This document shows, piece after piece, positions 31,890 through 48,723 of a DNA stretch of 64,000 nt (position 1 is the first letter of the stretch; the number at the start of each line of letters is the position of its first letter). Both the position numbers and the translations under genes were made by a program. The stretch spans positions 16,556-80,555 of the forward strand of contig JAPLLN010000049.1 in the NCBI GenBank assembly GCA_026387475.1, in the 5' to 3' direction. Below the pieces are notes generated by a model that was not told the origin of the DNA, ran no database searches, and saw only the letters and a program-made list of their open reading frames with translations. Origin of the DNA: Candidatus Omnitrophota bacterium (lineage in GTDB: Bacteria; Omnitrophota; Gorgyraeia; Gygaellales; Profunditerraquicolaceae).

Positions 31890-32209
31890 TTTTCCATATT
31901 AGTATTATTACCTATATGCAAAGAGGGGAAAAACAGTTTTCCCCTTACCCCAGCTTCTTCATTATGAGCTTCGTGATTTTCGGTCGTCATATTGGAAAAG
32001 TTTTTATTTAGTATTTGTAAAACTATTTATTAAGCCATTAAATAAAAAAACCGAGCTGTAGAATCCACAACTTACGTCGGTATTCGGCAGCCCGGCCATC
32101 CTAAAACTACACCAAAATTTTTTGAGGACCCGTGGCTTTGCGCCCCTGCTTTTCAGCAGGTTTGCCCTTATCGTTTTCCGTGGCTTTACTCTGTATCAAT
32201 TACATTTAA

Positions 32210-32237
32210 AGTATATAATATAATCCGTCGCTGTCAA
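32210..32237 (-). promoter_or_regulatory. Sigma70-like promoter for the giant gene (TTGACA-N16-TATACT on the minus strand).
   Basis: The reverse complement of 32205–32240 reads cTTGACAgcgacggattatattaTATACTttaaa. The -35 is at 32232–32237 and the -10 at 32210–32215, which implies a 5' leader of about 220–315 nt. Confidence 0.45.
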
Positions 32238-32390: not shown

Positions 32391-32436
32391 AAGGCTAAAA
32401 ATGGCGCCCTTGATTTCATCGCGTTAGGCGCCATTA
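32391..32436 (-). terminator. Rho-independent terminator after the 888-aa gene.
   Basis: A 9-bp GC-rich stem AATGGCGCC/GGCGCCATT (32400–32408 and 32427–32435), followed on the minus strand by TTTTTAG. Confidence 0.6.
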
Positions 32437-32439
32437 ATT

Positions 32440-32472
32440 CAGATTGGACATTAATTTTCCAGATTGGACATT
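32440..32472 (-). promoter_or_regulatory. Tandem pair of the 13-nt motif CAGATTGGACATT (minus-strand sense AATGTCCAATCTG), between the stop of the 888-aa gene and its terminator.
   Basis: Copies at 32440–32452 and 32460–32472. The 45-bp context TTAATTCAGATTGGACATTAATTTTCCAGATTGGACATTAATCTGG is nearly identical to the 35351–35391 context. Confidence 0.5.
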
Positions 32473-32497
32473 AATCTGGGCAGCAATTCTTAAGATT

Positions 32498-35164
32498 TTA
32501 CTTTATTTTACCCGTAATCAAGCCGACTGCTAACTGCCTATCCTTTCTCGCGTCCTCGATATTCCCTAATTTTGCATTAGCTGAAGAGCGAAATCCGAGG
32601 GCCTTGTCGTTTTTAGGCTCATATTCTAGGACTTTAGTAAAAGTCTCAACTGCACCTTGATAATCGCGCGCATAAAATAACTGTTTTCCTTGTTCATAAT
32701 AATCTTGGGCGGCTTTAGCATCTGTTTGTGTTTGACTGGAGTCAGCGGTTGGTTTGTTTACAGGCGAAACCCAAAATCTATCCGGTACTATCAAGAGATT
32801 ATTGTCTTTCAACTGTATAATCTGATCACTGCTATTTATAGGATTATGGACATCGGTCAACGGTTCCGGCTTTATAGTGAACACAGCGCCATTTTCAAGG
32901 GTAATCTTTTGTTCTCTTGTTGAACTTGCTGGCGAACTTAATTCTACTTGCGGCCCCGGAGCTGCCGCGGGAACGATTGCGGAAACGGTTGGCACAGCAG
33001 GCGCTACCGGACTCACTGCAGCCGGTTGCGGTAGAGCGGCCACGGATTTGTGCGCAGCAAGGCTGGCTTCTCCAAGAACTCTCTCAAACTCCGGTTGAAA
33101 GTTCCCACCCAAGGCTTGCGTTGCCGCCACATCTGACCAGGCATCATCATAATTATGCAACAGGTAATTCGTTATGGCGCGGCCATTGTAACTGGCTGAG
33201 TCGCCCGGATCAAGCTTTATGGCTTCGGTAAAACCGGCTTTAGCTTCTTCATTCTTTCCTAAATAAGCCAATGCATCCGCGCGGTTGTAATGCGTTTCGG
33301 CTAATCCGGGATCAAGTTTTATCGCTTTATCAAAATTAGCAATAGCTGTGGCTTGATCAAATTTATTATTATAGGCAACACCCCTGTTATTAAACGCAAT
33401 GGCATCGTTGGGATTCATCCCGATAGATCTATCATATTCGCGGATTGCCTCATCATACTTACCTTCCATGAAAAAAGAGTCACCTGTCAGCCTTCCTTCC
33501 CTGGCTTGCTCAATTTTATCTTTAGGAGCTGCCGGACTCACTGCAGCCGGTTGCGGCAAAGCAACACCCGGAGGCGAAGATACTATGGGTATTGATTTGG
33601 AGCTAACAGCGGGAGCATTTGTCTGGCCTGATCCCACCGACGGCGCTGCAGACAAACGATCCAAAGCCTCCGATGGAATTCCGTATGGAAGATCATCTTG
33701 CGGCATAGAAATCTTAGATACTGGAGCCACCGGCGTAACGGCCGGCGCAGCCGCTAAAGCAGGCCCAGTTACTGCTGCGGCTTGCACAAGAGCAGGAGCC
33801 AACGGCTGTTGATCTAAATTATCGAGGATATCGGCCGGACCTGCAGAACCCCGAGTATAAGGAGCATATACTGGTTCAGCTACTACTGGGGCACTTACAG
33901 CTGCCACAGGGACGCTTGCAACTGCGGGGACCGGATCGTAAACATACGTACGTCCCGACGGATAAGTATAGGTAGCTACCACTGGAACAGCCGGCGCTGG
34001 ATTCTTATCATATACATACCGCCTGCCTGAAGGATAAACCCCGGAGTCAGTCAGCAGATAAGGCATCTCTGAATTTTTGTTTTCATTAGTAACTGCATAA
34101 ACTGGAATATTTTTTGTCATTGTCGCTGCGAAAGTCGCTACCGGAGCAGGTTTTTCTTCTATAAATGTTGCCGCAAAAGTCGCTACCGGAGGCTCCGGGA
34201 TACTGCTTCCTGCGCGATTAGCCGTATAGACCTCGCCAGAATATCTCTGGGCTTCGCGAATATCATTGAATGTCCTACCGGCAACTTCCCAGGTATTAGG
34301 CGCTCTCTCAATAATCGAATAGTCCCCTGCTCCGCCGGCCGGCTTAGACTGCTCTACCGTAAACGTCGCTGCTGGCGCCGGAGATACAACGTCTTTCGCG
34401 CTAAGCATTACATTCGGATAATAGTTATTTATTTTGTCAATCTGATAAGGCGTATCCCCTATAGGTTTACCGCCCTTGAACAACCAATGCTCATATTGCA
34501 TCTTATCAAGGTTTGTTGCTGACATTGCTCCGTTAAAATCCGGCTTAGGCGGTTCGGGTATCTTATAACCGTGGGCTGAAATTGTGCCGGGGACAGGATC
34601 CCCGATTGAAATCGGAGGCCCGGTAATACCAAATGAGGTTTGAATAGGATCCATATACTGCGCTGCGTTGATCGTCGGCAACGGTAATTGCGCCATATCC
34701 GGAAGCGGCGTTGTGGCATAAAGCACATCTGACTGGGGAAGAGAAAAAGAAGGAAACGCAGGATTGATATTATTGGTGATGTCGAAAGAGGCAAGCTGCG
34801 CAGAATTATCGACCTGCATATATCCGCCGGCATCAATATATGCGGGCGGCAAGAATGGTTGCTGCGCAGGCATCTGTTCAGTAAGACTAAAAGGAGCGAC
34901 AGCCGGCGCCTCCTGCGGTAAACTCGGCATAACCGCGTAAGAATCATCAAAAGCGGGTGTCACCTCTGGCCCCAAATTGTATACCTCTTGCGTTACCTCC
35001 GGAGAATAGTAATTCGTATCAGCCATCGATTCCTCGTTCTCCGCGCGCAGGATCCCGGTCAGAAAAAAGCTAGCAATAAACATGAAGCCGATTGAAATTA
35101 AAACTTTGCTGTTTTTGTGATTATTCATGAGTCGGCCCTCCTTGGATAAATAAACAACTGTCAA
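32498..35164 (-). CDS. Large secreted or membrane-anchored protein (888 aa) with TPR repeats and Pro/Ala-rich internal repeats.
   Basis: The ORF track gives an 888-aa ORF. It has an N-terminal hydrophobic anchor (KVLISIGFMFIASFFLTGIL). Repeats PAPVATFAAT (x2), YPSGR(R/T)YVYD (x2) and LPQPAAVSP(A/V)AP (x2, with a DNA direct repeat about 525 nt apart near 33010 and 33535). TPR-like stretches include NPNDAIAFNNRGVAYNNKFDQATAIANFDKAIKLDPGLAETHYNRADALAYLGKNEEAKAGFTEAIKLDPGDSASYNGRA and the C-terminal AQDYYEQGKQLFYARDYQGAVETFTKVLEYEPKN. Confidence 0.75.
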   Translation of the reverse strand: MTVVYLSKEGRLMNNHKNSKVLISIGFMFIASFFLTGILRAENEESMADTNYYSPEVTQEVYNLGPEVTPAFDDSYAVMPSLPQEAPAVAPFSLTEQMPAQQPFLPPAYIDAGGYMQVDNSAQLASFDITNNINPAFPSFSLPQSDVLYATTPLPDMAQLPLPTINAAQYMDPIQTSFGITGPPISIGDPVPGTISAHGYKIPEPPKPDFNGAMSATNLDKMQYEHWLFKGGKPIGDTPYQIDKINNYYPNVMLSAKDVVSPAPAATFTVEQSKPAGGAGDYSIIERAPNTWEVAGRTFNDIREAQRYSGEVYTANRAGSSIPEPPVATFAATFIEEKPAPVATFAATMTKNIPVYAVTNENKNSEMPYLLTDSGVYPSGRRYVYDKNPAPAVPVVATYTYPSGRTYVYDPVPAVASVPVAAVSAPVVAEPVYAPYTRGSAGPADILDNLDQQPLAPALVQAAAVTGPALAAAPAVTPVAPVSKISMPQDDLPYGIPSEALDRLSAAPSVGSGQTNAPAVSSKSIPIVSSPPGVALPQPAAVSPAAPKDKIEQAREGRLTGDSFFMEGKYDEAIREYDRSIGMNPNDAIAFNNRGVAYNNKFDQATAIANFDKAIKLDPGLAETHYNRADALAYLGKNEEAKAGFTEAIKLDPGDSASYNGRAITNYLLHNYDDAWSDVAATQALGGNFQPEFERVLGEASLAAHKSVAALPQPAAVSPVAPAVPTVSAIVPAAAPGPQVELSSPASSTREQKITLENGAVFTIKPEPLTDVHNPINSSDQIIQLKDNNLLIVPDRFWVSPVNKPTADSSQTQTDAKAAQDYYEQGKQLFYARDYQGAVETFTKVLEYEPKNDKALGFRSSANAKLGNIEDARKDRQLAVGLITGKIK

Positions 35165-35249
35165 CTTATATTAAGTTTATCCTATATAGCAGGGGTATTC
35201 AAGAGTAGATCGTGATAAAAAGGAAGCGTTTTCGTGCGGGGAGCTTAAC

Positions 35250-35311
35250 AAAAAAGGAAGGGGCAGTGAAGCTATTTTCGCAAGCCGCGGGACGACTTTT
35301 GAGCCCCTTCC
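35250..35311 (-). terminator. Putative rho-independent terminator after the 965-aa gene.
   Basis: Arms GGAAGGGGC (35256–35264) and GCCCCTTCC (35303–35311), followed on the minus strand by a run of 6 T. The loop is long at about 38 nt, so confidence is moderate. Confidence 0.45.
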
Positions 35312-35356
35312 TAAATTTATCTTACTGCCAGATTTATCAATTAAACCGCTTTAATT

Positions 35357-35391
35357 CAGATTGGACATTAATTCTGCCCAGATTGGACATT
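35357..35391 (-). promoter_or_regulatory. Tandem pair of the 13-nt motif CAGATTGGACATT overlapping the stop codon and last codons of the 965-aa gene.
   Basis: Copies at 35357–35369 and 35379–35391. The stop codon (35368–35370) lies inside copy 1. The C-terminal NVQSGQN is encoded across copy 2. Confidence 0.5.
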
Positions 35392-38265
35392 CGTAAATGA
35401 CTGATTGTCAATAACTGTATACACTTTCCCCGAACTAGGGTTAGTTAATGTTAGGACTGATCCGGGTTCTTTAGGCAAAATAGTATTCACGCTGCCAACA
35501 GGAAGGTCGCCCTGGTAAACAACCGCCCTGCCATCTTTATAATCTAAGGTAACTTTCAGTGGCCCATGTTTAACTATGCCGTATTTGGGGTCGTTTTCGG
35601 TTGTAGTAAGATCATAATTCCCTGGTGCGATTTCAGCAGCTGCGTTATTCAGAGTGACTATTACAGGTTTACTAGCATCCGGTATAGACTGGGTTGGCTC
35701 AAAGAAGGAACTAGGAGCACTTGGCGGTATGGTGACGGCAATAGGGATCTGATTTGATTTTCCAGCGTCGTAGCCGGGTATCGGTACCGTAGTTAGGGTT
35801 TCAGAAGGCTGCATCACTTGCGGAGTCCTCGCTAAATCAGTTAGCGGCGGCGCGAGCGAGTCTCTGCTGGCAAACTCGGGAGTAACCGGTAAAGGCATCG
35901 GCTTTATGGGCAGCGTTCCCCAATTAAACGCCTCCGCATCAGCATCATTCCTCTCTAAGGCGTTGGACCTAACATAAACATCAGTTCTTCCGGTAACCGA
36001 ATTATAGATAGGAAAACGAGTCTCCGGGCCATTATAGTCGCGAGGCACCAATTCATATAATACTTTATCGGTTCCTTCCTTGTAAATGGGCTGTCCGGAG
36101 ACCCAAGAACCGCCTTCGGGAGCCAGATTTGGATCATAGACGACAGTAGCGACTGCCGGCTGATTCGGCGATACGGCTGAAGGGCTTACACGATTCTGCT
36201 CGAAGAAATTAACAGGTCCCGGAGATTTAAAGTCCTTCCATTTTGCCTCAAATTCTGCTACGGTCGGTTTTGTCGCTGGGTCAAACGGATCTCTTATCTT
36301 TGCCGGGGGTTCGTTTGGATGCTGAATCTGATATGCAGAATCTTTCAACCATTGACCAACATTCTCTGCGGCTTTTGTAACAGGAGAGACTGCACCCCTT
36401 TCTCCCCAAGAATCCTGCGCTTGTTTTGTCAGGTTCTCTAAATACTGTTCTTTTTTAACATCCTGCTCAGCTCTCATAGAAACGGGGAGCGGCGCTAATG
36501 TCTTTCCTTCTCCTTCGGGGCTTACTATCGGCGCCTCTGCGAAGGAGCTCGGATTACGCAAGGGAACATAAAGCTGCTTTGGTTTTGCTGAGTAGTCAGC
36601 AGGTACCGGCACCGTGGTTAGACCTTGCGAAGGCGGTTCTACCGTAGACGGCCGAGAGCCGGTGAGACCGGCTTCGAAAGAATCAACTGTTTCAGGTATG
36701 CTTACAGGAGCCGGATTGAATAGGCTTTGTGAAATTACCGGTAAAACCGGTAGCCCTGCATCAACTTCTGATGGCGGAGAAATATTCGGTTTAAACTCCA
36801 ATGGCCGTATTAAACCAACAGGCGCTTTCACCTGATAAAGCTTCTCATCTGGTAGACCACTACCCGGAGGGCCTGCAGTATTTATTTTATCAATAAAATC
36901 AGACGCGGATGCTTGAGGAGTCCCGCCCGGAAGGCCTAAAACTGCTCCAGTATTATTAATCTGCTCCTGCAAACCGGAAGAAATGCTCGGCTTATAGCCT
37001 CCTTCTTCCAGATTGAAACCCACAGGATACTCTGGTTTATTAGAAAGATAGGCTTCGGATAGTGCCGGATATGGCTGCGAAACTGCCGGAAGCGGCTGGC
37101 TTACCTGCTGCGCAGTTGATTGGGGTAGAGAATAACCGGACCATGTCCTAGCGTCTTCCGGAGAAGCGCCATTTCTTATCGCAGATTCGTATTGCCATTG
37201 CGGAGTATTCCACGCCGGCGCCTGTGAAGTAGCAGCTTCCTGCGCCTGCGGAAGAATCATAGGAAGAGGCGGATTAATATTATACGTCTTGACGGAAATT
37301 GGAAGAAGACTCTTTCCCTCCCAATCCGACGGAAGCTGTTCCATAGGATATTCGGGATACGAAACAGTCAACCCAGAAGGGGTTGTGGTCCGAATCGTAG
37401 CATTAGTATCACCTTTACCGGTAACTACCGGAGCTTCTATTTCCGGGGTTTCTCCTGTGCGCAAACCCAACCAATTACGGCCGGCGCCATCAAGCTTAGT
37501 CTGCTTAACTCCTGATGACATAGTTTCATAGCTGGTATTCAAGTCTAATTTATGAGCAGCTAAACTCCCCAGCGAACCAGTTACATTATACGCTCCGCTA
37601 AATGCCTGATTAATCACATACCTGTCCATCATACCTTTACCTTCGGTCATCTCGCTTGCCGCGATACTTAACAGATGGGAAGGAATACCTTGCACCAAAT
37701 CGCCTAAGGCGGCTTTTGAAACAGATCCACCGGCAAAATCTCCGGCCATACCTGCGGCAAGGCCGACCCACGGGCTATACTCACCCTTACTATTCGAAGC
37801 AGCATATATAATTCCGCTCTTGACTATACTCTCCGGTATGGCTCCGGGACTACCGCTGATCAACCCCGAACCCAAACCCGTTCCTAATGAACTTATCCCG
37901 GAGATAGCCTGGCCGCCCCAGCCGTAATAATTACCCATCGCCGATATTCCATAACTCAACTGGCCGGTGGCAAGATTAGAGGCATAACTATTCCCCCACG
38001 AACCAAGGGCGCTCATCGCGCTGAAATTGCTAAGATTCCCGCCGCTTGAAATCGCGCTTGAAGCCGCGCTCCCGGCAACAGAAGAAGCCACACCTATGGC
38101 TGTCCCCACGGCAAAAGTCCCTGCGTCAAAACTATCTGTCTTGCCGCCGCCGGCGGTAGAACGGGAGGCAAACGCCTTTGCGGGTAAAGAAAAGGATAAA
38201 GCGAATGCGCAGGCTAAACATACCGCGCTAATTTTTAATATCCTCATCCTTTTCATTTTAATCAC
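35368..38265 (-). CDS. Large secreted protein (965 aa). Signal peptide, then a Gly/Ser/Ala-rich N-terminal region, then Pro-rich segments.
   Basis: The ORF track gives a 965-aa ORF. It starts GTG(M)IKMKRMRILKISAVCLACAFALSFSLPAKAFA, a classic signal peptide. A long low-complexity G/S/A region follows (SSVAGSAASSAISSGGNLSN...). It is co-oriented with the Tad operon upstream. Confidence 0.75.
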   Translation of the reverse strand: MIKMKRMRILKISAVCLACAFALSFSLPAKAFASRSTAGGGKTDSFDAGTFAVGTAIGVASSVAGSAASSAISSGGNLSNFSAMSALGSWGNSYASNLATGQLSYGISAMGNYYGWGGQAISGISSLGTGLGSGLISGSPGAIPESIVKSGIIYAASNSKGEYSPWVGLAAGMAGDFAGGSVSKAALGDLVQGIPSHLLSIAASEMTEGKGMMDRYVINQAFSGAYNVTGSLGSLAAHKLDLNTSYETMSSGVKQTKLDGAGRNWLGLRTGETPEIEAPVVTGKGDTNATIRTTTPSGLTVSYPEYPMEQLPSDWEGKSLLPISVKTYNINPPLPMILPQAQEAATSQAPAWNTPQWQYESAIRNGASPEDARTWSGYSLPQSTAQQVSQPLPAVSQPYPALSEAYLSNKPEYPVGFNLEEGGYKPSISSGLQEQINNTGAVLGLPGGTPQASASDFIDKINTAGPPGSGLPDEKLYQVKAPVGLIRPLEFKPNISPPSEVDAGLPVLPVISQSLFNPAPVSIPETVDSFEAGLTGSRPSTVEPPSQGLTTVPVPADYSAKPKQLYVPLRNPSSFAEAPIVSPEGEGKTLAPLPVSMRAEQDVKKEQYLENLTKQAQDSWGERGAVSPVTKAAENVGQWLKDSAYQIQHPNEPPAKIRDPFDPATKPTVAEFEAKWKDFKSPGPVNFFEQNRVSPSAVSPNQPAVATVVYDPNLAPEGGSWVSGQPIYKEGTDKVLYELVPRDYNGPETRFPIYNSVTGRTDVYVRSNALERNDADAEAFNWGTLPIKPMPLPVTPEFASRDSLAPPLTDLARTPQVMQPSETLTTVPIPGYDAGKSNQIPIAVTIPPSAPSSFFEPTQSIPDASKPVIVTLNNAAAEIAPGNYDLTTTENDPKYGIVKHGPLKVTLDYKDGRAVVYQGDLPVGSVNTILPKEPGSVLTLTNPSSGKVYTVIDNQSFTNVQSGQN

Positions 38266-38456
38266 TACCTTTCGTTGGTAATCTGCGTTACCCCGGGCTC
38301 ATACTGCTCGCCCTGGCCGAATGTATCCGCGGTCTCGCGCGCGCGCTCGTGGAATGCCCGCTGCAAAAATATGCGCATCCCGATAAAAGCGCCCAGCACG
38401 ATCAAAACCAATGCCACATATTCAATCAACCCCTGCGCCCTAATGTTTGGCTTCAT
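38265..38456 (-). CDS. flp: Flp/Fap-family pilin-like protein (class III signal peptide).
   Basis: 63 aa: MKPNIRAQGLIEYVALVLIVLGAFIG.... It has the G-x(2-4)-EY motif followed by a hydrophobic helix, and shares the motif with the other small ORFs in this locus. Confidence 0.55.
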   Translation of the reverse strand: MKPNIRAQGLIEYVALVLIVLGAFIGMRIFLQRAFHERARETADTFGQGEQYEPGVTQITNER

Positions 38457-39237
38457 AATCCACCGCTATGTTAGTGACGCTCTTGCCTAAATCCGGCAAT
38501 TCTTTCTCAAAAGTAACCTGGGATAACCCGATTTTACAGGTATCATTACGGTTATTAGAAAATACCAGCTCTTTCACTGCCGCGCGGGTATTCTTTACGC
38601 CTGCCATCGGCACTTGCGCAAGGGGGCTTTCGCTCTCCAACTTCCACCCCCGGAGGACCATATTATTCTTATAAAACAAAACAACTTCAGCTAATCCGTC
38701 CTTGCAGTAATAATTCACCGATTGCCCGCCGGGCCCTTCTATGAGATTTATCAATACCGCTGCCGGATAAACCGGAGCAATATCTTTTTTAGGCTTAGCC
38801 AGGAGGCGGGTTTCGCCTGCCGCCCCGGGCTCTTCTTTTATTTTACCGCGGGAGACCGTAAACCTGGTCTTGCCGTCTTGGAAATATTGCGCCGGAGGAA
38901 ATACGATGATAATACGCTCCTCTCCGTTATCAAACGCCAGCATATTATCTATAACAGCGGCATTAGCCGGCGGAACATTCTTACCTAAATTAATTTCTCT
39001 CCAATTAGAAGCAACGAGTTGTTTGCGGTAGAAATTTTTTACCGCATCCCCGCTTTCATTAGTTACGTAATAGGTAAAATGCTGCTTTGAGCCGGCGATC
39101 AACCTGTCCTCTTCTATTGTCTTCCGGGCCCCGTATGGCACCGGGGTAGAGGCCTGCCCCCACCAATCAGCATAAAGCCAGCTAACCTGAAAAAGGGTTA
39201 TAATAATCAATGCTAATAAAGTACGCTTACCTGACAT
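38440..39237 (-). CDS. Secreted hypothetical protein (265 aa) within the Tad locus.
   Basis: ORF track. N-terminal signal-like segment MSGKRTLLALIIITLFQVSWLYA. It is co-oriented and tightly packed between the tadG-like and flp genes. Confidence 0.55.
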   Translation of the reverse strand: MSGKRTLLALIIITLFQVSWLYADWWGQASTPVPYGARKTIEEDRLIAGSKQHFTYYVTNESGDAVKNFYRKQLVASNWREINLGKNVPPANAAVIDNMLAFDNGEERIIIVFPPAQYFQDGKTRFTVSRGKIKEEPGAAGETRLLAKPKKDIAPVYPAAVLINLIEGPGGQSVNYYCKDGLAEVVLFYKNNMVLRGWKLESESPLAQVPMAGVKNTRAAVKELVFSNNRNDTCKIGLSQVTFEKELPDLGKSVTNIAVDYEAKH

Positions 39238-39246
39238 TTTATCTCC

Positions 39247-40650
39247 TTACTTACCCGTCGTGCTAAGCTTATCCGTATCGATAATATCCGAGTCAAATTC
39301 CATTCTCGGCGGGTATATTTGACCGCCCTGCTGGCCAATATTTCCCTGAAAACTTACCAAGCTGTAACTATAAATATCCGGATACGCGGTCTGCCAGAGG
39401 CCCAAGTCCGTTCCCTCGTGATGTTGATGGGTGTGAACCGTAACAAAGCGTTCATTATCCCAGGGCTTTACGTCGTTAATCCAACAGATAATATCCAGCG
39501 CGTCTCCTTCGCTATCTTTTGTCGAACGCTCCGGCATTAATCCGGCTTCAGCCGCAACAAGCAGGGCGATCATGGCGGGGATTAAAGCGATCGCTGCCAG
39601 CACCGCTGCATTACCTACCCCTGCCGACGCCTGGCCTGCTGCAGATAAGTTGCACGCAGCTACATAACCATCTGGAAATGGTTTGCCACATTGAATCACG
39701 GCAAGAGCGAAAAACTTAGCAGCAGTCCTATATGCCTCACCAGCTGCAATCATATCTGCCTTAGCGCTCAAACCCAGGCCTAAAATAGAGGCTAAATCCG
39801 CTAACTCCACGGCTAACGGAAATACGCAAACCTGTAAATCAAAGGTATCCGGTTTTTCAATCGTCGAGTTTATCTTCACAAAATGGCCCCTGTCTTGTCC
39901 GTCTTTCCACGGATAAATATATTCATCCGGAGGGGTGTCTTCTTTAGCCAGATTAGAGATAGAAGTCAAAAACTCACTGAAGCTCCCCTGATAATCACGT
40001 TTTTTATCCGGATCAGTTACATCTTCGGGCGGGTCTCCGCTCCTTAATTTGTTCCCTATCCCGCTGTTGGCAAAAGCAAAGGTATAAGAATAACCCTTGG
40101 CATAATTGTGTTGTTTTTTCGCAGTCTCGCGTATCTTCAAATAGGTGAAATACTGGCCTGTCCAGAAACCCAGAACAGCGAGATTTAAAGCTATGATGAT
40201 CTTAGTAAAGCTTGCTAACTCTGCAGCGGATGCGACTGCTGCTAAGTTAGCCACACCAGATTTTGCTAAACCAATAGGAGCAGCGCAACAGGCTGCTCCT
40301 GTCGCTATTATGCCGGCTGCCGTGGCTTGATTTGCATAGGTTTGCGCAAATGCTAATTTTATCAGTGCCGTAGCAAAAGATACGCTAAAAGAAGCGTAAA
40401 ACATCCAGTATTTTGCTTCTAACGTGCTATTACTCTGGGCAATGCCGTTAAATAAGCTCGCCATAGTCGAGCCTCCGGCGAGCGCTCCGGAGTCTGCGGC
40501 GTTAGCCCCGTAAGTCTTGGTCATCGCCACCTTACTTAAATTCACCGAGACCATCGCCATAATAATGAGCACAACCAACACGATGATAAATATCGGGACC
40601 ATCTGGCCCTGTTCATACCTGAATTTATTTTTGGAAAAATTTGTAAACAT
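39247..40650 (-). CDS. tadG: TadG-like pilus assembly / minor pilin-like protein (467 aa).
   Basis: N-terminal segment EQGQMVPIFIIVLVVLIIMAMVSVNLSKVA resembles the TadE/G-like N-terminal helix. Its position after the tadE-like genes matches canonical Tad locus order. Confidence 0.45.
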   Translation of the reverse strand: MFTNFSKNKFRYEQGQMVPIFIIVLVVLIIMAMVSVNLSKVAMTKTYGANAADSGALAGGSTMASLFNGIAQSNSTLEAKYWMFYASFSVSFATALIKLAFAQTYANQATAAGIIATGAACCAAPIGLAKSGVANLAAVASAAELASFTKIIIALNLAVLGFWTGQYFTYLKIRETAKKQHNYAKGYSYTFAFANSGIGNKLRSGDPPEDVTDPDKKRDYQGSFSEFLTSISNLAKEDTPPDEYIYPWKDGQDRGHFVKINSTIEKPDTFDLQVCVFPLAVELADLASILGLGLSAKADMIAAGEAYRTAAKFFALAVIQCGKPFPDGYVAACNLSAAGQASAGVGNAAVLAAIALIPAMIALLVAAEAGLMPERSTKDSEGDALDIICWINDVKPWDNERFVTVHTHQHHEGTDLGLWQTAYPDIYSYSLVSFQGNIGQQGGQIYPPRMEFDSDIIDTDKLSTTGK

Positions 40651-40662
40651 CGCCGCCCTTCC

Positions 40663-40911
40663 TTACTTCACTATAACCTTATTCTCAGTAAGCGCCTCCG
40701 GGACATAATTCCAACTCACGGGCTGAATGTAGTCGTCTTTACCTGTCCCGGCAGTAACGCGCGTATTATTGTAAGCGACCTGGCGTTTGATCATCTGATT
40801 ATTAAACCAGAACCAGATATTCACCATCCCGCCGAGGACAATGACCAGGATGATAAACGCCATCACTGTCTCAATGGTCCCCTGTCCTTTATTATTGCGC
40901 GCGCTCCTCAT
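40663..40911 (-). CDS. TadE/TadF-like pseudopilin (82 aa).
   Basis: MRSARNNKGQGTIETVMAFIILVIVLGGMV... has the G-x4-E class III signal-like motif plus a TM helix. Confidence 0.5.
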   Translation of the reverse strand: MRSARNNKGQGTIETVMAFIILVIVLGGMVNIWFWFNNQMIKRQVAYNNTRVTAGTGKDDYIQPVSWNYVPEALTENKVIVK

Positions 40912-40912
40912 T

Positions 40913-41572
40913 TTAATGCCCGGGTGTATACCACGTCCGGCCCCTTTCTACTTCTGTGCCTGTCGCAGCCTCGCTATACCGGTACTGGTGCGTATTCGGA
41001 TCGTAATAAACTCCCTGCGTAACTGTCCAGAGAGGCTTATTATCTTTATCTACTAGAGTGGTGGTGATAGTATCTTTTAAAGTCGAGGAGCGGATATTGG
41101 TAATGCCCGCCGCATCCTCCTGCTTACGCGTGCTCTCTTTAAATTGCGTATCTTGAGAAGTCGTTACGTTCTGCACGCTCCCGATATCTTTAAGATTAGG
41201 GGAATAATTATCGTTTACTTTGTAATAATTAGCGCTCTCTCCGGCGCTCCCTACTTCGGGGACCGACCATAGGACGCTGGCGTTGGCATTAGTGGTCTGG
41301 GAACTTCCTTTTCTGAAATACCCGGAGATATCCGCGTCTCTCCTATTCTCTAAAAGCGAGAGCTGTACCGAGCCTCCGCCTGCCGAAGGCGTATTGATCC
41401 CGCCGTAGTTAGCTATCTGCAGCGCTTCGCGGAAGGTGCGCATCTGCACATACTGCAGGTCATTGGCGCGGCTTAAATAAGAGAGGAGGATGCCGAAGAT
41501 GACCAGTATAAGGCTGCCGAATATTGCCAGCTCTAACAATGCCTGCCCTCTTATGTTCCTACCACGTATCAT
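40913..41572 (-). CDS. tadE: TadE-like pseudopilin (219 aa).
   Basis: MIRGRNIRGQALLELAIFGSLILVIFGILLSYLSRAN matches the TadE-like N-terminal pattern (G-x4-E followed by a hydrophobic helix). Confidence 0.5.
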   Translation of the reverse strand: MIRGRNIRGQALLELAIFGSLILVIFGILLSYLSRANDLQYVQMRTFREALQIANYGGINTPSAGGGSVQLSLLENRRDADISGYFRKGSSQTTNANASVLWSVPEVGSAGESANYYKVNDNYSPNLKDIGSVQNVTTSQDTQFKESTRKQEDAAGITNIRSSTLKDTITTTLVDKDNKPLWTVTQGVYYDPNTHQYRYSEAATGTEVERGRTWYTPGH

Positions 41573-41581
41573 TTTAGCCCC

Positions 41582-41992
41582 CTACTGCTGCTGTTCGGTA
41601 TTGCTGGACGTATTCGAACTCTGATAAACAACGCCGGAATCCGATAAAGCTGCCGAGACCCCGGTAGTATCGATAATCCTGCGCGTATCCACCACATTGG
41701 AACTTGAACTGGATTGCGCGACTTCATTTAAACTGATAGCTCTGGCTCCTCCCAACATATCTATAGAGGTCATATTCGAAGCAGAATTAGAAGTGCTGTT
41801 GCTTGAGACTATGGCATTGACATAATAATCCGCAGCCTGCATCTGGTTCCCGCCGCCGATAAAATTATCCGCCATATCCTTGACCTGCCCCTGAAAAGAG
41901 CGCTTGATATAGGTGCTCATCGCAAACAAAACAATAGCGATGATCCCGAAAATAATGCTGTATTCCAGAACTGAAGCGGCTCTTTTATTCAT
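41582..41992 (-). CDS. flp: Flp-like pilin with a Ser/Thr-rich C-terminal extension (136 aa).
   Basis: MNKRAASVLEYSIIFGIIAIVLFA..., with an S/T/N-rich tail. Confidence 0.5.
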   Translation of the reverse strand: MNKRAASVLEYSIIFGIIAIVLFAMSTYIKRSFQGQVKDMADNFIGGGNQMQAADYYVNAIVSSNSTSNSASNMTSIDMLGGARAISLNEVAQSSSSSNVVDTRRIIDTTGVSAALSDSGVVYQSSNTSSNTEQQQ

Positions 41993-41994
41993 TT

Positions 41995-42324
41995 CTACCT
42001 CAAAGGTTCCTGATCCACGCTTAAAACATTCTCAACGCGGTTAGTCTGCTGCAGCGTGTTGGCGCTGGACTCATAAATGCTCCGGTTCGTGCCGTTTATC
42101 TCCTGCTCGTAACTTGACCCTTTTTCATTCACCTCGCGGTTTATGGTGATATCCGAGATAGTCGCGCCCGGAGAATAACTAACCGCCCCGATCTGCTCGG
42201 CGCTTGTCTTGATCTTTCCCTGTATCCCGCCCTTTAAGTATATCTGCATACCGACGAGCGCGGCGACCAGAATACAGATAAAGACCGCGTACTCCACCAG
42301 GCTTTGGGCGCTATTTCTCATCAC
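41995..42324 (-). CDS. flp: Flp-like pilin (109 aa).
   Basis: MMRNSAQSLVEYAVFICILVAALVGMQIYLKGG.... Confidence 0.55.
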   Translation of the reverse strand: MMRNSAQSLVEYAVFICILVAALVGMQIYLKGGIQGKIKTSAEQIGAVSYSPGATISDITINREVNEKGSSYEQEINGTNRSIYESSANTLQQTNRVENVLSVDQEPLR

Positions 42325-42325
42325 T

Positions 42326-42487
42326 CTACCTCTTAGTCTCGTCCAGCTCGGTCTGCACCTGTTTAAAACGGGCGTTTACCGAGCGCTGCATATAAACATA
42401 CATCGCCACGAGTGCCGCGGAGACTATCATGATCAGCATCGCGTACTCTAACAAACTCTGGGCTCTTTTCCTTAAGAAGATTTTCAT
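42326..42487 (-). CDS. flp: Flp-like pilin (53 aa). Not in the ORF track because it is under 60 aa.
   Basis: Hand-translated: MKIFLRKRAQSLLEYAMLIMIVSAALVAMYVYMQRSVNARFKQVQTELDETKR. ATG at 42485–42487 and stop at 42326–42328. Confidence 0.5.
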   Translation of the reverse strand: MKIFLRKRAQSLLEYAMLIMIVSAALVAMYVYMQRSVNARFKQVQTELDETKR

Positions 42488-42503
42488 CGCGGCCCCTTTC
42501 ATT

Positions 42504-42662
42504 TTACTGCTTCATTCCGGAAATGATCCCGGAGGCCTTATTAAAATATTTCTGAAAAGCGTTCTTAATGTTATCCTTAAATCCCGCGGCGATCACCGCC
42601 GCAAGGACCACTATCATGATAATGGCGTATTCCGCTATACTTTGAGCCCGGTGGTCTTTCAT
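42504..42662 (-). CDS. flp: Flp-like pilin (52 aa). Not in the ORF track.
   Basis: Hand-translated: MKDHRAQSIAEYAIIMIVVLAAVIAAGFKDNIKNAFQKYFNKASGIISGMKQ. Confidence 0.5.
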   Translation of the reverse strand: MKDHRAQSIAEYAIIMIVVLAAVIAAGFKDNIKNAFQKYFNKASGIISGMKQ

Positions 42663-42663
42663 C

Positions 42664-43536
42664 TTACTTGCCTCCGATAGCGAATGCCGCGCCCTTCATA
42701 AACTCTAGCAGGATCGGCGCGCCTATTACTATGCCGATGACCGGCAGAATACAGAAGATGAGCGGAATAAGGATCTTGATCGGCGCCTGTAAGGCGAATC
42801 TCTCCCCGCGGTGGAAGCGCATCATGCGCGTGTCTTCCGACAAGATCATGAACGCCTCGGCAACCGGTGTCCCCATCCTCTCTGCCAGGACCAGCGTCTG
42901 GACAAACGAGCTTACTTCCGGAATATTCAGGCGCTTGGACATATCTTTTAAAGCCTGCGAGCGGGACTTACCCCATTTGATCTCTTCCAAGACAAATGCC
43001 AGCTCTTCCATCATCGGGTTCATCGGCGTTTTATCGATGACCCACTTGACCGCGGTGGTAAAATCCAACCCCGCTTCAACGCAGAGGCCCAAAAGATCGA
43101 CTGTCTCCGGCAAGAGGCGGGCAATGGCGTATTTGCGCTGGGCAATTTTGCGCTTCACGATTATATCCGGAATCATATAACCTAACAAAAGCGCAAAAGC
43201 GAATTCCCAGATCTGCGGCTTGGCAAGCACAAAATAAGCGGCAACACAAAGAACAGCCATGAGTATAATTTTCAAGTTAAAGAATTCTATGGCGGTAAAA
43301 CGTAAGTGCGCGGCATCCAATTTATTCTTCAAATCCAGGTCAAGATGCAGTTTCTCCAGTATCTGGCGCGAGAAAGGTATAACCTTGGTCAGGAAATTAT
43401 GCAGGCGCACCTTCTGCACCTTCTGTTCAGCGTCGGGGAGCGTGAGCCTGCGGGTAGCGTACGCCGGCGAAGAAAGTATCGAGGCTACGATCAACCCCGC
43501 GCTTAAAATGATCAGGCCGTAAATGGCAAAAAGCAT
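42664..43536 (-). CDS. tadC: Type II secretion F-domain inner-membrane platform protein, TadC-like (290 aa).
   Basis: GspF-like segment ...LPETVDLLGLCVEAGLDFTTAVKWV...ALKDMSKRLNIPEVSSFVQTLVLAERMGTPVAEAF.... It is the second of two adjacent GspF-like genes. Confidence 0.7.
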   Translation of the reverse strand: MLFAIYGLIILSAGLIVASILSSPAYATRRLTLPDAEQKVQKVRLHNFLTKVIPFSRQILEKLHLDLDLKNKLDAAHLRFTAIEFFNLKIILMAVLCVAAYFVLAKPQIWEFAFALLLGYMIPDIIVKRKIAQRKYAIARLLPETVDLLGLCVEAGLDFTTAVKWVIDKTPMNPMMEELAFVLEEIKWGKSRSQALKDMSKRLNIPEVSSFVQTLVLAERMGTPVAEAFMILSEDTRMMRFHRGERFALQAPIKILIPLIFCILPVIGIVIGAPILLEFMKGAAFAIGGK

Positions 43537-43548
43537 TAAATCTCCCTC

Positions 43549-44412
43549 CTATATCTTGATGATGCTGAACTTGCGTATTAAAACCATCCCCACAACCTGC
43601 AAGATTAGCGCAACGATCAAAAGCGTCCTTCCGGTGTCGCTCTCAAGCATGATGTCAAAATGATGTTTATTGTTCATAATGACCCAGACAAAGAATATCA
43701 GCGGTAAAATTGACATGATGATGCCCTGCATCCTGCCCTGAAGAGTAAGGGTCTTGATGCTTTCTTTCAGCTTGCGATTATCGCGTATAGTAGTAATAAG
43801 ACGGCTGAAAACCTTGGTCAGGTCGCCGCCGGTTTCACGGGCGACTAAGACCGAATTTACTACCAGGCTTAAGTCTTCCATCTGCATTCTTTTATCCAAC
43901 CGCCTCAAGCTCTCTTCAAGGGTGATACCCATGCGGTTCTCCCTGACTAAAAGGCCGATCTCCTGGCCCATGGGCGCGGGCATCTCCTCGACGAGGACTT
44001 CAAATGCCTGCAAGAGGCTTAAGCCGCCTTTCAGGGCGCTGGAGAGAATCATGATCGAGTCGATAAGCTGATCGTAAAATTTCTTTCTGCGCTGCGCGTC
44101 CCTTATCTTTAACATCATATTCGGGATAGCTAACCCCACAAACGCGCCGGCAAACGCCCCCAGCCAGTTACTGGCGAGGATATATCCGAGCGTGCCCAGA
44201 ACAGGCGGAAGGATATAATAAAGCATGATTATCCTGCGCGGACTCTTGTCATAGGAGAACATATCGTCGAGTTTTTTCTCGATGACCCGCTCCTTTTCAT
44301 CGTGCCAGTCCCGCGCCTTTTCCTCGACCTTGGGCGCTCCCGCCATAGTCAAGAGCACAATGGAAGCCGCCACTAAACCGACAATAACTAAAAATAATAT
44401 GGCCAAAGACAT
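43549..44412 (-). CDS. tadB: Type II secretion F-domain inner-membrane platform protein, TadB-like (287 aa).
   Basis: GspF-like segment ...LSSALKGGLSLLQAFEVLVEEMPAPMGQEIGLLVRENRMGITLEESLRRL.... Confidence 0.7.
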   Translation of the reverse strand: MSLAILFLVIVGLVAASIVLLTMAGAPKVEEKARDWHDEKERVIEKKLDDMFSYDKSPRRIIMLYYILPPVLGTLGYILASNWLGAFAGAFVGLAIPNMMLKIRDAQRRKKFYDQLIDSIMILSSALKGGLSLLQAFEVLVEEMPAPMGQEIGLLVRENRMGITLEESLRRLDKRMQMEDLSLVVNSVLVARETGGDLTKVFSRLITTIRDNRKLKESIKTLTLQGRMQGIIMSILPLIFFVWVIMNNKHHFDIMLESDTGRTLLIVALILQVVGMVLIRKFSIIKI

Positions 44413-44443
44413 TTACCTTGTCTCCTTTCGCAACAATTTTAAA

Positions 44444-44767
44444 TTACCAGCTGCCTTCGCTGTTCAGCGACCCTGTGTTCTGGGTCGTATCGCGGTTCTG
44501 CGACTGGTTGGTGCTGCTTGTGGTGTAGGCATTAGTCCCGCCGACGACATTCTCCGTCGAATTTACGCTTGAATAAGTCGTAGTATTCGCGGTCGACCGG
44601 GTCGGAGAATACTGTTCGCCGATCTGGTCACTCGCTTCTTTCACCCGCCCCTGAAGGCCGCCTTTGATATAAGACTGCATCATGATAAGCGCCCCCACCA
44701 CCACGCCGATTATTACCGCGTATTCGAGCGTACTTTGGGCCTTTCTTTGTTTTAAACGGATAAACAT
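44444..44767 (-). CDS. flp: Flp-like pilin (107 aa).
   Basis: MFIRLKQRKAQSTLEYAVIIGVVVGALIMMQSYIKGG.... Confidence 0.55.
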   Translation of the reverse strand: MFIRLKQRKAQSTLEYAVIIGVVVGALIMMQSYIKGGLQGRVKEASDQIGEQYSPTRSTANTTTYSSVNSTENVVGGTNAYTTSSTNQSQNRDTTQNTGSLNSEGSW

Positions 44768-44797
44768 TTTGTCCTCCCTGTCTGCCGATAGGCAGGC

Positions 44798-45154
44798 TTA
44801 TTGTCCCGAACTGTTGACAGAAAGCGTCTGCTGCTCCCTGGTAACGTTAGTCCGCTGATTGGTAGTCTTGCTTACGCCGCCACCCAAGGACTCACCTTCA
44901 CTCTCGTTACTGGACTGTTGAGTCTGGGCATTTGACTGCACATAATACGGCTCATACTGCGAAGTATTGAAAGTAAGCGTATTCCCGCCGACGGACCCGC
45001 CGGAACCCCGGGCATCCACCACGTCCTTAATGCGGCCCTGTAATCCTCTCTTGATATAGACCTGCATCGCGATAAACGCGCCGACGACAATGGCGAAAAG
45101 TATGGCGTACTCTGCCGTGGTCTGCGCCCTGCTCCTGTTCATTTGGATAAACAT
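44798..45154 (-). CDS. flp: Flp-like pilin (118 aa).
   Basis: MFIQMNRSRAQTTAEYAILFAIVVGAFIAMQVYIKRG.... Confidence 0.55.
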   Translation of the reverse strand: MFIQMNRSRAQTTAEYAILFAIVVGAFIAMQVYIKRGLQGRIKDVVDARGSGGSVGGNTLTFNTSQYEPYYVQSNAQTQQSSNESEGESLGGGVSKTTNQRTNVTREQQTLSVNSSGQ

Positions 45155-45200
45155 ATTTCACCCCCCTTGATTTGTTTTAAAAAACTAATTTCCGCCGAGA

Positions 45201-45359
45201 TTCATGTTCTGGACCTTGGTATCCATCTTGGTCGATACCCCTTCCAGAGAACTCTGAACCTTAGTCCCTACCAACCTGGATGCTATGATCACCGCTGCCA
45301 CTATCGCAGTCAGGATGATCACATACTCCAGAGTTGACTGCCCTTTTCTTTTGAACATC
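45201..45359 (-). CDS. flp: Flp-like pilin (52 aa). Not in the ORF track; first gene of the pilin run.
   Basis: Hand-translated: MFKRKGQSTLEYVIILTAIVAAVIIASRLVGTKVQSSLEGGYRPRWIPRSRT. RBS AGGAGG lies upstream (reverse complement of 45366–45371). Confidence 0.45.
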
Positions 45360-45815
45360 TTACCACCTCCTAAGTTTGTACTGAAGATCCTCTAAAAAAA
45401 GAAAAACCGCGCTACCGCCAATTGGAATTCTGCTTGTCGGTAACCCGGTTCCTACAAAGACAAATCGAACTTGTGACGAGCAGCGTCCCGTGGCCATGCG
45501 CATCCACTACCTCCATAGCGGAATTGCTTTCTTGCTTGTCGTCCTTCGTTAATTCTTTACCTATATTGTATTTAAAATATATCATTAATAGAGGTAAGTG
45601 TCAATATTATTTAGGGTTTACAAGAAAGCGGTTTCGAAATTTCGCGGCAGAATTAACTTTCTAACCCCGCTGATTAAAAGAGTTTACCTAACAATCCGGG
45701 CTATCCGAAATAAGCCAATATTCCCTCATCCCAATAACCACCCCCACCCCAATAAACCACCCCAACACCCAATCCCCTGACACTCAGTTTTAAGCAGTTT
45801 CCACCCCGAAATAAT

Positions 45816-45892
45816 AATGTCCAATCTAGATATTGACAAGATTGGACATTAGTGATATACTTTTCTTGAGCTTAAAAATGTCCAATCTGGAG
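45816..45892 (+). promoter_or_regulatory. Promoter/operator for the plus-strand DDE gene. TTGACA-N17-TATACT embedded in a palindrome of the 11-nt motif, plus a third motif copy abutting the RBS.
   Basis: AATGTCCAATCTA (45816–45828), then gaTATTGACA (-35 at 45833–45838), then AGATTGGACATT (45839–45850, the inverted copy filling the spacer), then TATACT (-10 at 45856–45861). A further AATGTCCAATCTG at 45877–45889 is followed by GGAG at 45889–45892 and ATG at 45898. Confidence 0.55.
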
Positions 45893-45897
45893 TAAAT

Positions 45898-47679: not shown

Positions 47680-47736
47680 GGACACCCTTCAATCCAAAGC
47701 AGGGACACCCTATATGCCAAAGCTGAGGGTGTCCCC
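47678..47736. repeat. REP-like palindromic elements: AGGGACACCCT x2 direct plus an inverted AGGGTGTCCC, forming a hairpin at 47701–47735.
   Basis: 47678–47688 and 47701–47711 are direct copies. 47726–47735 is the inverted copy. This is the same 10–11-mer as the hairpins at 48294–48328 and 48684–48718. Confidence 0.6.
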
Positions 47737-47783
47737 AAAAGAAAATTTTTAGTTAGATTTGCCCTACTTCTTCGTCTATTGTA

Positions 47784-48284
47784 TTGGAAGGAGATGATTC
47801 TATGCCTAGGGGAGCGAGAATACTTTTAAGGAACGTGCTGTACCATATTATAAACCGCGGTAATCAAAAAGAACGGATATTCCTGGAAGGATCAGACTAC
47901 CAGGAATATTTACGAATATTAAAACACTATAAATGCAAATTTCGATTCAAGGTTTTCGGATATTGTCTAATGCCAAACCATGTCCACATAATGCTGGAGC
48001 TAAAGAATCCCCAAGACTTGGCAAAGATAATGCAATGCTTGACCCAAACTTATACCAAATGGTTCAACAAGAAATATGAAAAAGTCGGACACTTATGGCA
48101 GGGTAGGTTTAAAAACATGGTGATACAAAAAGATGATTACTTGATAAATTGTATATCTTATGTGGAAGCGAACCCTGTGAGGGCTGGCATAGTTAGGTTT
48201 CCAGCAGATTATTGCTGGAGCAGCTATAAAGACAGGGTATTTGGGAATAAAAATGCCTTGCTGGATTTACCCGATTCAACTTAA
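47784..48284 (+). CDS. IS200/IS605-like HuH tyrosine transposase (REP-associated tyrosine transposase-like, 166 aa).
   Basis: YHIINRGNQKERIF...GYCLMPNHVHIMLE (HuH motif H-V-H)...ISYVEANPVRAGIV (catalytic Tyr region)...YCWSSY. It is flanked on both sides by GGGACACCCT/AGGGTGTCCC hairpins, the REP-transposon-like arrangement. Confidence 0.7.
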   Translation: MEGDDSMPRGARILLRNVLYHIINRGNQKERIFLEGSDYQEYLRILKHYKCKFRFKVFGYCLMPNHVHIMLELKNPQDLAKIMQCLTQTYTKWFNKKYEKVGHLWQGRFKNMVIQKDDYLINCISYVEANPVRAGIVRFPADYCWSSYKDRVFGNKNALLDLPDST

Positions 48285-48293
48285 ATAAGTACC

Positions 48294-48328
48294 GGGGACA
48301 CCCTGCCGATTAGCTCCAAGGGTGTCCC
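48294..48328. repeat. REP hairpin GGGGACACCCTgccgattagctccaAGGGTGTCCC. It also sits between the convergent 3' ends of the tyrosine-transposase gene and the DUF192-like gene.
   Basis: Perfect 10–11-bp arms at 48294–48304 and 48319–48328. Confidence 0.6.
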
Positions 48329-48669: not shown

Positions 48670-48683
48670 ATATTTGGTTAGCT

Positions 48684-48718
48684 GGGGACACCCTACCGAT
48701 TAGCTCCAAGGGTGTCCC
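48684..48718. repeat. REP hairpin GGGGACACCCTaccgattagctccaAGGGTGTCCC.
   Basis: Near-identical to 48294–48328, with one loop substitution. Confidence 0.6.
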
Positions 48719-48723
48719 TGGTT

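Follow-up and report, generated by a model that had tools for sequence, protein, structure and literature searches.

The stretch of 64,000 nucleotides analysed here, called the window in the following, belongs to contig JAPLLN010000049.1 of a Candidatus Omnitrophota bacterium and carries a Tad pilus gene cluster in which a 13-bp sequence, the box, recurs at three places. All genes from position 56773 down to position 1 run in one direction, and they comprise the Tad pilus genes, the gene of a 965-residue protein, the gene of an 888-residue TPR protein and a giant gene. The Tad genes follow the order TPR, peptidylprolyl isomerase (PPIase), RcpC, secretin, CpaE/F and DUF192, then pilins, TadB, TadC and a TadG-like protein. 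Two genes inside the Tad/giant cluster lie on the opposite strand, namely a RAYT gene and the gene of a 593-residue protein (45898..47679, plus strand), which is termed REG here and is the candidate binder of the box. Copies of the box surround the promoter of the REG gene and form tandem pairs upstream (pair B) and downstream (pair A) of the 888-residue protein gene, with the giant gene lying downstream of pair A.

The box, AATGTCCAATCTG, is present in five exact copies, of which four are on the minus strand, forming pair A (32460-32472, then 32440-32452 in reading direction) and pair B (35379-35391, then 35357-35369), while the fifth is the proximal copy at the REG promoter (45877-45889, plus strand). 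Two further copies at that promoter carry one mismatch, the distal copy at 45816-45828 on the plus strand and the inverted copy at 45838-45850 on the minus strand. An earlier reading of the window, made from the sequence only, had listed seven copies at three loci, and this count is borne out: the exact 13-mer has a chance expectation of about 0.002 by simple arithmetic, and with up to two mismatches allowed the seven matches compare with a mean of 1.52 in 100 shuffles, in which the maximum was five and seven was never reached. The coordinates also agree with its placement of the copies between the stop codon and the terminator of the 888-residue protein gene, over the last codons and the stop of the 965-residue protein gene, and in the promoter and leader of the 593-residue protein gene. 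Smaller corrections concern the inverted copy, which exists but as a 13-mer begins one position before the range 45839-45850 given for it, and the near-identical 45-bp context of the two pairs, which is a similar stretch of about 45 nt with a 2-nt indel, in which 23 bases are identical (32434-32456 = 35351-35373). In the box, the core AATGTCCA..CT is without variation and differences are confined to positions 9, 10 and 13 (AATGTCCA[A/G/T][T/A]CT[G/A]), with ATGTCCA fixed in all copies found.

Boxes at the REG promoter

The predicted sigma-70 promoter of the REG gene (45833..45861, plus strand) has the form TTGACA-17-TATACT with a TG extension and matches 11 of 12 hexamer positions. The distal copy, AATGTCCAATCTA, ends 4 nt upstream of its -35 box, the inverted copy, which reads AATGTCCAATCTT on the minus strand, fills the promoter spacer, and the proximal copy extends from about +9 to +21 of the predicted start, its 3' end entering the Shine-Dalgarno sequence GGAG at 21 nt before the ATG. 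For a survey of this promoter, 80 loci encoding family members were taken from a metagenome scan, and the non-redundant set comprises 62 loci, with proteins that are 37-82% identical. The proximal copy is present in 62/62 loci, where it typically precedes the ATG by 21 nt and follows the first base of TTGAC by 41-45 nt. The distal copy is present in 50/62, usually 7-9 nt upstream of TTGAC, and in 9/62 an inverted copy falls between the -35 box and the proximal copy. TTGACA and a TATACT-like box stand at the same place in about 60 REG loci. In L001 and L002, two loci with about 80% protein identity, all three promoter copies are invariant, and the DNA just upstream has diverged. Conservation in relatives, which had been named as a check on the box, is thereby found at the REG promoter in every non-redundant locus.

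In the manner of operators, these sites bracket the core promoter of the gene itself at a spacing to the -35 box that is fixed among orthologues, and by analogy the bracketing of a strong core promoter is the layout of autorepressed regulators and transposase genes. The sequence-only reading had suggested an operator of a DNA-binding protein and had named a “DDE” protein, which is REG, as a candidate; the promoter bracketing and the conservation of the helix-turn-helix (HTH) domain of REG speak for this, with REG as the putative binder. Because conservation extends to the distal copy, which is untranscribed, and to the inverted copies, recognition is expected to take place in DNA and not in RNA.

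Next to the REG promoter, on the minus strand, a leader of about 215 nt (45362-45604) separates a near-consensus promoter (45604-45576) from a Flp-type pilin gene. This leader is almost invariant in three relatives and has no Rfam match even at E 0.5, and in L029 a c-di-GMP-I riboswitch (11730-11854) is found at the equivalent place between the regulator and pilin genes.

Tandem pairs before the giant gene

Pair B closes the open reading frame (ORF) of the 965-residue protein. Its first copy lies within the last codons and is translated as N-V-Q-S-G, and its second copy, 22 nt further on from start to start, overlaps the stop codon (35368-35370). An intrinsic terminator hairpin with a U-run, predicted by folding and carrying the conserved GTCCCG in its loop, follows on the minus strand at 35249..35312, and then the 888-residue TPR protein gene (32498..35164, minus strand), with a likely start at ATG 35126 after AAGGAGG and the stop at 32498-32500. 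The first copy of pair A comes 26 nt after this stop, the second copy 20 nt later from start to start, and both precede another predicted terminator hairpin with U-run (32395..32435, minus strand). Around 200 nt downstream of pair A, the conserved promoter of the giant gene is found (TTGACA-16-TATACT, 32210..32237, minus strand), and the leader of this gene contains a c-di-GMP-I-GGC riboswitch aptamer (32082..32175, minus strand; 76.6 bits versus a gathering score of 59) and after it a terminator-like hairpin (32054-32072, minus strand). The giant ORF itself (1..31990, minus strand) begins with the ATG at 31990, has more than 10,660 codons and runs off the left window end. The sequence-only reading had overlooked that the minus strand is open from 32026 to the left window end (more than 10,675 codons), and with this frame both distal pairs are therefore also located upstream of large genes. 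It had, moreover, considered operator-like sites between a stop codon and a terminator unusual; the placement is correct, and it can be recast as the boundary between the Tad operon and a separately promoted, riboswitch-controlled giant gene.

A scan for tandem pairs, i.e. two copies 4-14 nt apart, in 185,579 genomes with one genome per species gave 18 loci as compared to about 0.2 expected by arithmetic, and 12 of the records are titled Omnitrophota or Omnitrophica. Among the matches outside this phylum (L006, L010, L012, L020 and L022), several lie, as judged by eye, within 7-mer tandem repeats such as AATCTCC. With the metagenome loci included, there are at least 16 loci in which the first copy of the pair starts 0-30 nt past the stop codon of the last Tad-operon gene, which encodes TadC, the 265-residue or the 965-residue homologue, and the spacing of the tandem boxes at this boundary is 17-30 nt, sometimes 40-65 nt. 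Wherever the sequence reaches that far, the next gene after the pair encodes a homologue of the giant protein N-terminus (36-57% identity), and no pair was found in three loci that have an unrelated gene after tadC. A c-di-GMP-I or c-di-GMP-I-GGC riboswitch precedes the giant homologue in L009, L011, L015, L017, L029, L057 and L100, and REP (repetitive extragenic palindromic) hairpins or terminators occur between the pair and the giant-gene promoter. The layout of a pair followed by the giant gene recurs in distant relatives. Since the boundary placement recurs and the distance to the promoter varies, the pair is tied to the Tad/giant boundary and not to a fixed promoter-proximal spot.

The relative L001 (80% identity) does not have the 888-residue TPR protein gene and possesses a single three-copy cluster, a terminator of the pair-B type and then the giant-gene promoter region. 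The TPR gene together with its own pair and terminator (32498-35391, compared with 880-1035 of L001) resembles a cassette that was gained or lost between motif clusters. The promoter region of the giant gene is strongly conserved (GAAAGCGCTACC...TTGACAGCGACGG...TATACT), and the first 2000 residues of the giant protein gave a borderline match to Peptidase_C39 only. In other Omnitrophota that conserve the N-terminus of this protein, its gene invariably adjoins the Tad cluster. In nine loci (the window at 35255-35312, L001, L011, L029, L033, L036, L044, L054 and L057), the outer stem of the terminator after the pair is G-rich and covaries, and its large loop contains GTCCCG without variation; this hairpin may be more than a plain terminator, for instance a small structured RNA or the remains of a REP. 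A small-RNA promoter between pair B and this hairpin (TTGACA-16-TAGAAT in L001) was considered and dropped because the predicted start falls inside the hairpin stem in other loci, and an ordinary A-tract/U-tract terminator was retained. Between 56000 and 64000, the G+C content falls from about 0.48 to 0.34-0.40 and the genes are mostly without family matches, with a MerR-type HTH encoded at 60125-60994; this region may be a foreign island.

The box does not fit several common classes of repeated sequence. A DNA uptake sequence is excluded by density, as the 64 kb contain seven copies, grouped at three places, and roughly one copy per kb on both strands would be needed; beyond the promoter and junction sites, a handful of copies with at most one mismatch was found in about 0.8 Mb of related loci. 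A protein-coding repeat is excluded because reading frame and strand differ among the copies (L009, L019 and L013). As for a phage or viral origin, the tandem pair had zero matches in 2.9 million viral contigs, and searching the window against Rfam, at the gathering threshold and at E ≤0.5, yielded the c-di-GMP riboswitch at 32082-32175 as the only RNA. The box is not a REP element either: the REPs of this locus are other hairpins, GGGGACACCCT...AGGGTGTCCCC, at 47696-47737, 48294-48329 and 48683-48724, which flank the RAYT (REP-associated tyrosine transposase) gene (47784-48284, plus strand). This RAYT gene adjoins the REG gene in many, not all, Omnitrophota loci, and relatives have further REP hairpins dispersed through their Tad/giant intergenic regions.

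Family and predicted fold of REG

REG is identical to a hypothetical protein of a Candidatus Omnitrophica metagenome-assembled genome. More than 300 proteins are related to it; they come essentially without exception from metagenomes or assembled genomes of Omnitrophota, and most of them are 40-48% identical. REG is almost always single-copy; its protein clusters contain 1-6 members on 1-3 contigs, as compared to up to 612 for Tn5-type transposases retrieved in the same way. The gene has a fixed slot between DUF192/cpaF and the pilin genes (at least 20 loci) and points in the same direction as the Tad genes in most genomes, while gene and promoter are inverted in place in the window, L024, L027 and L041. 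Comparison of 45816-47679 with L028-L036 and others shows that no breakpoint of this inversion falls at a motif copy.

The AlphaFold2 model of REG, computed with 56 homologues, is confident: the predicted local distance difference test (pLDDT) score is 82 for the whole protein, and residues 150-593 reach 88.6. It consists of a three-helix HTH (residues 9-53), a disordered Pro/Glu-rich linker (about 60-150) and a large alpha/beta domain with a beta-rich insertion, which is Tn5-transposase-like (about 160-593). The HTH is the most conserved part, with 12 invariant residues in 62, as compared to 27 in the 444-residue C-terminal part. The linker is of the PEPEPAPEPVIEKP type and is encoded by imperfect tandem repeats of 54-72 nt (46138-46340, plus strand); its length varies widely among homologues, and the proteins have 526-724 residues.

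In Foldseek searches of the PDB with the full-length and the C-terminal model, Tn5 transposase was the sole significant match, with a probability of 0.97-0.99 and a template modelling (TM) score of just 0.19-0.26. Six Tn5 structures are at the top of the list, the best five at E 1e-4 to 1.5e-3, and the alignment is collinear over about 440-460 columns. The HTH matches the paired domain of Pax5/Pax6 with a Foldseek probability of 1.0 over about 60 residues. Searches of Pfam (E ≤10) and NCBIfam (E ≤1) found no transposase model for REG, including DDE_Tnp_1 (PF01609)/IS4, and gave weak HTH matches alone (HTH_32 at E 0.014 and the IS630 HTH region at E 0.024). Likewise, hhalign of the REG family alignment against the Tn5 sequence and against a 28-member IS50-family alignment stayed below 1% probability. 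As the profile-profile comparison was empty, it is the fold that carries the link between REG and Tn5.

The active-site residues were assigned from motifs and the order of secondary structure elements, i.e. by position along the chain and not by a residue-level superposition. After the predicted fourth strand (313-316), the residues A318-P-G-Y321 are invariant, with Ala in 56/56 homologues, at the place where IS4-family transposases have the motif D-x-G-Y/F, which we take to contain the second catalytic Asp. The following D322 is an Asp in 44/56 only. In turn, D276, W460, E464/E465, K473 and E475 are invariant or nearly so, D515 is also among the invariant acidic residues, and the stretch Y-x2-[RH]-W...EE...K recalls the YREK signature. 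The label “DDE” given in the sequence-only reading is therefore partly apt: the modelled fold resembles that of Tn5 transposase, but the label is matched neither by Pfam, NCBIfam and profile comparisons nor by the second catalytic Asp. We think that REG is a domesticated transposase in which catalysis was probably lost, because no family model is matched, the likeness is one of fold, the Ala at the place of the second Asp is invariant, and the gene is single-copy and syntenic. A mobile insertion sequence (IS) was rejected, as there is no motif copy beyond 47679 and as the gene is single-copy in a fixed syntenic position.

Readings of the box and known systems

Judged from conservation and genomic context, the box is most likely the DNA recognition site of REG. 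The reading that we favour, with a probability of about 0.55, is that REG binds the box, autoregulates its gene and is connected with the regulation of the giant gene. Transposase-type HTH proteins of IS elements bind repeats beside their own gene, and REG would bind the boxes through its HTH in the same way as transposases do at such repeats. It could then repress its own strong promoter by occlusion, by a roadblock or by bridging of the flanking sites. At the distal pairs, bound REG would tie the expression of the giant gene and the TPR gene to the REG level, alongside the c-di-GMP riboswitch; it might act there from a distal operator, by bridging to the REG promoter 10-13 kb away, as in the Tn5 synaptic complex, or as a boundary or roadblock.

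Several points weigh against this reading. Almost every copy reads in the same sense as the genes around it, a bias that a pure DNA operator does not need. The tandem pair lies at a variable distance of 189-376 nt from the giant-gene promoter and upstream of a terminator, which is not a classical operator position. The link to transposases is weak, as it comes from a model with a Foldseek E of about 1e-4 and a TM score of about 0.25, and comparisons by hidden Markov models (HMM) and profiles were empty. Finally, arrays and pairs are embedded in the parA and yidC coding sequences close to dnaA, which a plain transcription-factor model fits poorly.

These embedded copies came from four loci of the genome scan that are yidC-parA-parB clusters (L008, L013, L016 and L019). 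In L008 (5144-5432, minus strand), twelve copies with a spacing of 21 or 30 nt are in frame in a surface loop of ParA (Soj), where the array encodes MSNL repeats and about 100 extra ParA residues and is thus borne by an essential gene. In L019, three copies in sense orientation lie in the part of yidC that encodes the variable periplasmic domain and another one lies in the parA tail, and L013 and L016 each have an antisense pair in yidC. Four further origin loci were obtained through YidC homologues, and in these loci yidC-jag-parA-parB adjoins rpmH and dnaA-dnaN-gyrBA, i.e. the origin region. In one of them (L104), two sites form a palindrome in the 3' tail of parA, two (L103 and L106) have weak matches inside parB that are possibly coding coincidences, and the fourth has no motif copy. 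On a contig of 646.8 kb, the REG gene is about 75 kb from dnaA. The box was also compared with parS and is not parS, being asymmetric and unrelated to the 16-bp palindrome TGTTNCACGTGNAACA, and separate canonical parS-like sites coexist with the box in L013 and L016. As a side observation, gyrA and gyrB of L106 (1-6337), an Omnitrophota genome, carry inteins (Intein_splicing and LAGLIDADG matches in precomputed annotation).

The identity of the binder is one point where the favoured reading may fail, as any other conserved Omnitrophota DNA-binding protein could bind the box and the 593-residue protein gene would then be merely a target. The box would be the operator of that protein, with the 593-residue protein gene, the giant gene and parAB as its regulon. 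This would suit the boxes that are far from the REG gene, in yidC and parA, upstream of a kinase-domain protein of at least 1064 residues in L007, and in L014, and it is genomic context by which REG was singled out as binder. However, the box is never missing at the REG promoter in the non-redundant loci, its position around and over the core promoter is typical of autoregulation, the transposase-type HTH of REG is highly conserved, and the sites show no consistent linkage to any other DNA-binding gene. We consider this alternative unlikely, and it is the one that survives best.

As the embedded sites are poorly explained by a simple operator, a role of the box as a chromosome-organising or centromere-like site has to be weighed as well. 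REG or another protein would anchor or bridge origin-proximal DNA, for instance by anchoring it to the polar Tad machinery via the long rigid Pro/Glu linker, and autoregulation would be a side function. The twelve in-frame copies in the ParA loop, the pairs in the variable YidC periplasmic domain in either orientation and the palindromic double site in the parA tail can be viewed in this way, as these sites in tolerant coding segments suggest that chromosomal position outweighs promoter proximity. The yidC-parA-parB genes are beside dnaA and the REG gene is about 75 kb from it on the contig mentioned above, in the chromosome record of V. archaeovorus the Tad locus occupies 12-30 kb (PMC10066038), and the 90-residue disordered Pro/Glu segment of REG would be a suitable spacer. 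On the other hand, the non-promoter sites are few and were chosen by the motif itself, among the four origin loci one is devoid of copies and the matches in two are weak and possibly coincidental, ordinary ParB/parS is present in L013 and L016, and the tight linkage between the pair and the giant gene fits regulation better. Such a function thus seems quite unlikely, and about as unlikely is its specific form in which REG would be a bacterial counterpart of CENP-B, with box arrays, even those within parA and yidC, organising or anchoring the origin-proximal domain including the Tad/giant boxes.

The sequence-only reading had also offered an RNA-level element in the 3' untranslated region (UTR), which is disfavoured here. 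In its general form, the motif would act in RNA as AAUGUCCAAUCUG, a 5'UTR or 3'UTR element for an RNA-binding protein or a small RNA that controls translation of the 593-residue protein gene and stability or termination of the Tad-operon transcript. The sense orientation of most copies, the proximal copy in the predicted 5'UTR that runs into the Shine-Dalgarno sequence, and the distal pairs between stop codon and intrinsic terminator, which are probably transcribed, would agree with this. We regard it as very improbable, because the distal copy at the promoter, which is just as conserved, lies ahead of the -35 box and faces the opposed RAYT gene in the ancestral order, outside the sense transcript, because inverted copies are conserved in the promoter spacer, present in L059 and found in antisense in yidC, and because there is neither an Rfam family for the motif nor a conserved secondary structure (the folding z around the motif is about -1.8, mainly due to terminators, and -0.4 in the leader). 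Least probable of all is that the boxes are recombination sites of an active transposase-like recombinase that would serve programmed inversion or excision, or the insertion of cassettes, within the Tad/giant locus: the in-place inversion of the 593-residue protein gene with its promoter in the clade of the window, the direct pairs around the 888-residue TPR gene that L001 lacks in favour of one triple cluster, and the Tn5-like fold with the invariant acidic residues D276, E465, E475 and D515 could be cited for it, but Ala318 is invariant at the expected second catalytic Asp, there are no inverted copies at the far end of the gene, the inversion breakpoints are not at motif copies, close relatives have the same arrangement with no switching seen, and the gene is single-copy and syntenic.

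Binding of the box by REG, with autoregulation and a link to the giant gene, would be of relevance for the lifestyle of these organisms. The Omnitrophota are uncultivated and mostly ultra-small bacteria that are thought to be predators or parasites using Tad pili and giant proteins (PMC10066038; bioRxiv 10.1101/2023.11.21.568195). In the open-access papers and preprints on Omnitrophota that were searched, the Tad cluster and giant ORFs are described; REG, the box, the giant-gene riboswitch and the control of these genes were not found there. The control circuit proposed here consists of a phylum-wide 13-bp box, an apparently domesticated Tn5-like transposase as candidate binder and a c-di-GMP riboswitch on the giant gene, and the box can serve as a simple sequence tag for Tad/giant junctions and regulator targets in metagenomes. 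If it were true, the CENP-B-like role would couple segregation or the cell cycle to the deployment of a predatory pilus and giant proteins in ultra-small bacteria. To our knowledge, eukaryotes offer well-known cases of DDE transposases that the host recruited to bind DNA sequence-specifically, and few such cases have come from bacteria.

Among known systems, the closest in layout are IS repressors and transposases. IS1 InsA, IS911 OrfA, the IS30 transposase and the Tn5 proteins Tnp and Inh bind terminal repeats that overlap their own promoter, and REG resembles them in its transposase-type HTH and in sites upstream of and overlapping its own promoter; its multiple short tandem sites are also similar to the ends of Mu, Tn7 and Sleeping Beauty, each of which contains several sites. 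Unlike IS systems, REG is immobile, has a fixed place in the Tad cluster across the phylum and no inverted repeat at the far end, and its sites are also found kilobases away at host genes, while the catalytic Asp is apparently lost. The Tn5/IS50 transposase (IS4, PF01609) in particular is the sole significant fold match of the 444 C-terminal residues of REG, in which a YREK-like stretch was also noted, but there is no HMM or profile similarity, the TM score is about 0.25, an additional paired-like HTH and the Pro/Glu linker are present, and an Ala replaces the second Asp.

In bacteria, TldR and RAYT/REP systems are similar insofar as a transposon protein was domesticated, is single-copy and has short dispersed DNA sites. 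TldR is RNA-guided and RAYTs are HUH/Y1 enzymes with REP hairpins as their substrates, whereas REG has an HTH with a DDE-like fold and the box is a linear 13-bp sequence. KorB/ParB systems are alike in having few identical sites that are by promoters, hundreds of base pairs away from them and inside genes near parAB, and they differ in that the box is asymmetric and not the 16-bp parS palindrome, that the candidate binder does not belong to the ParB family and that a ParB with canonical domains coexists with it. Finally, CENP-B from pogo, the paired domain of Pax proteins from Tc1/mariner and FHY3/FAR1 from Mutator are DNA-binding proteins derived from transposases. REG is distinct from these in being bacterial, in its Tn5-like lineage and in its linkage to pili and giant genes, and it is known here from sequence and models; what it would have in common with them is a DDE scaffold that was kept for DNA binding in the host, together with an HTH resembling that of Pax and boxes that, like those of CENP-B, also occur in arrays.

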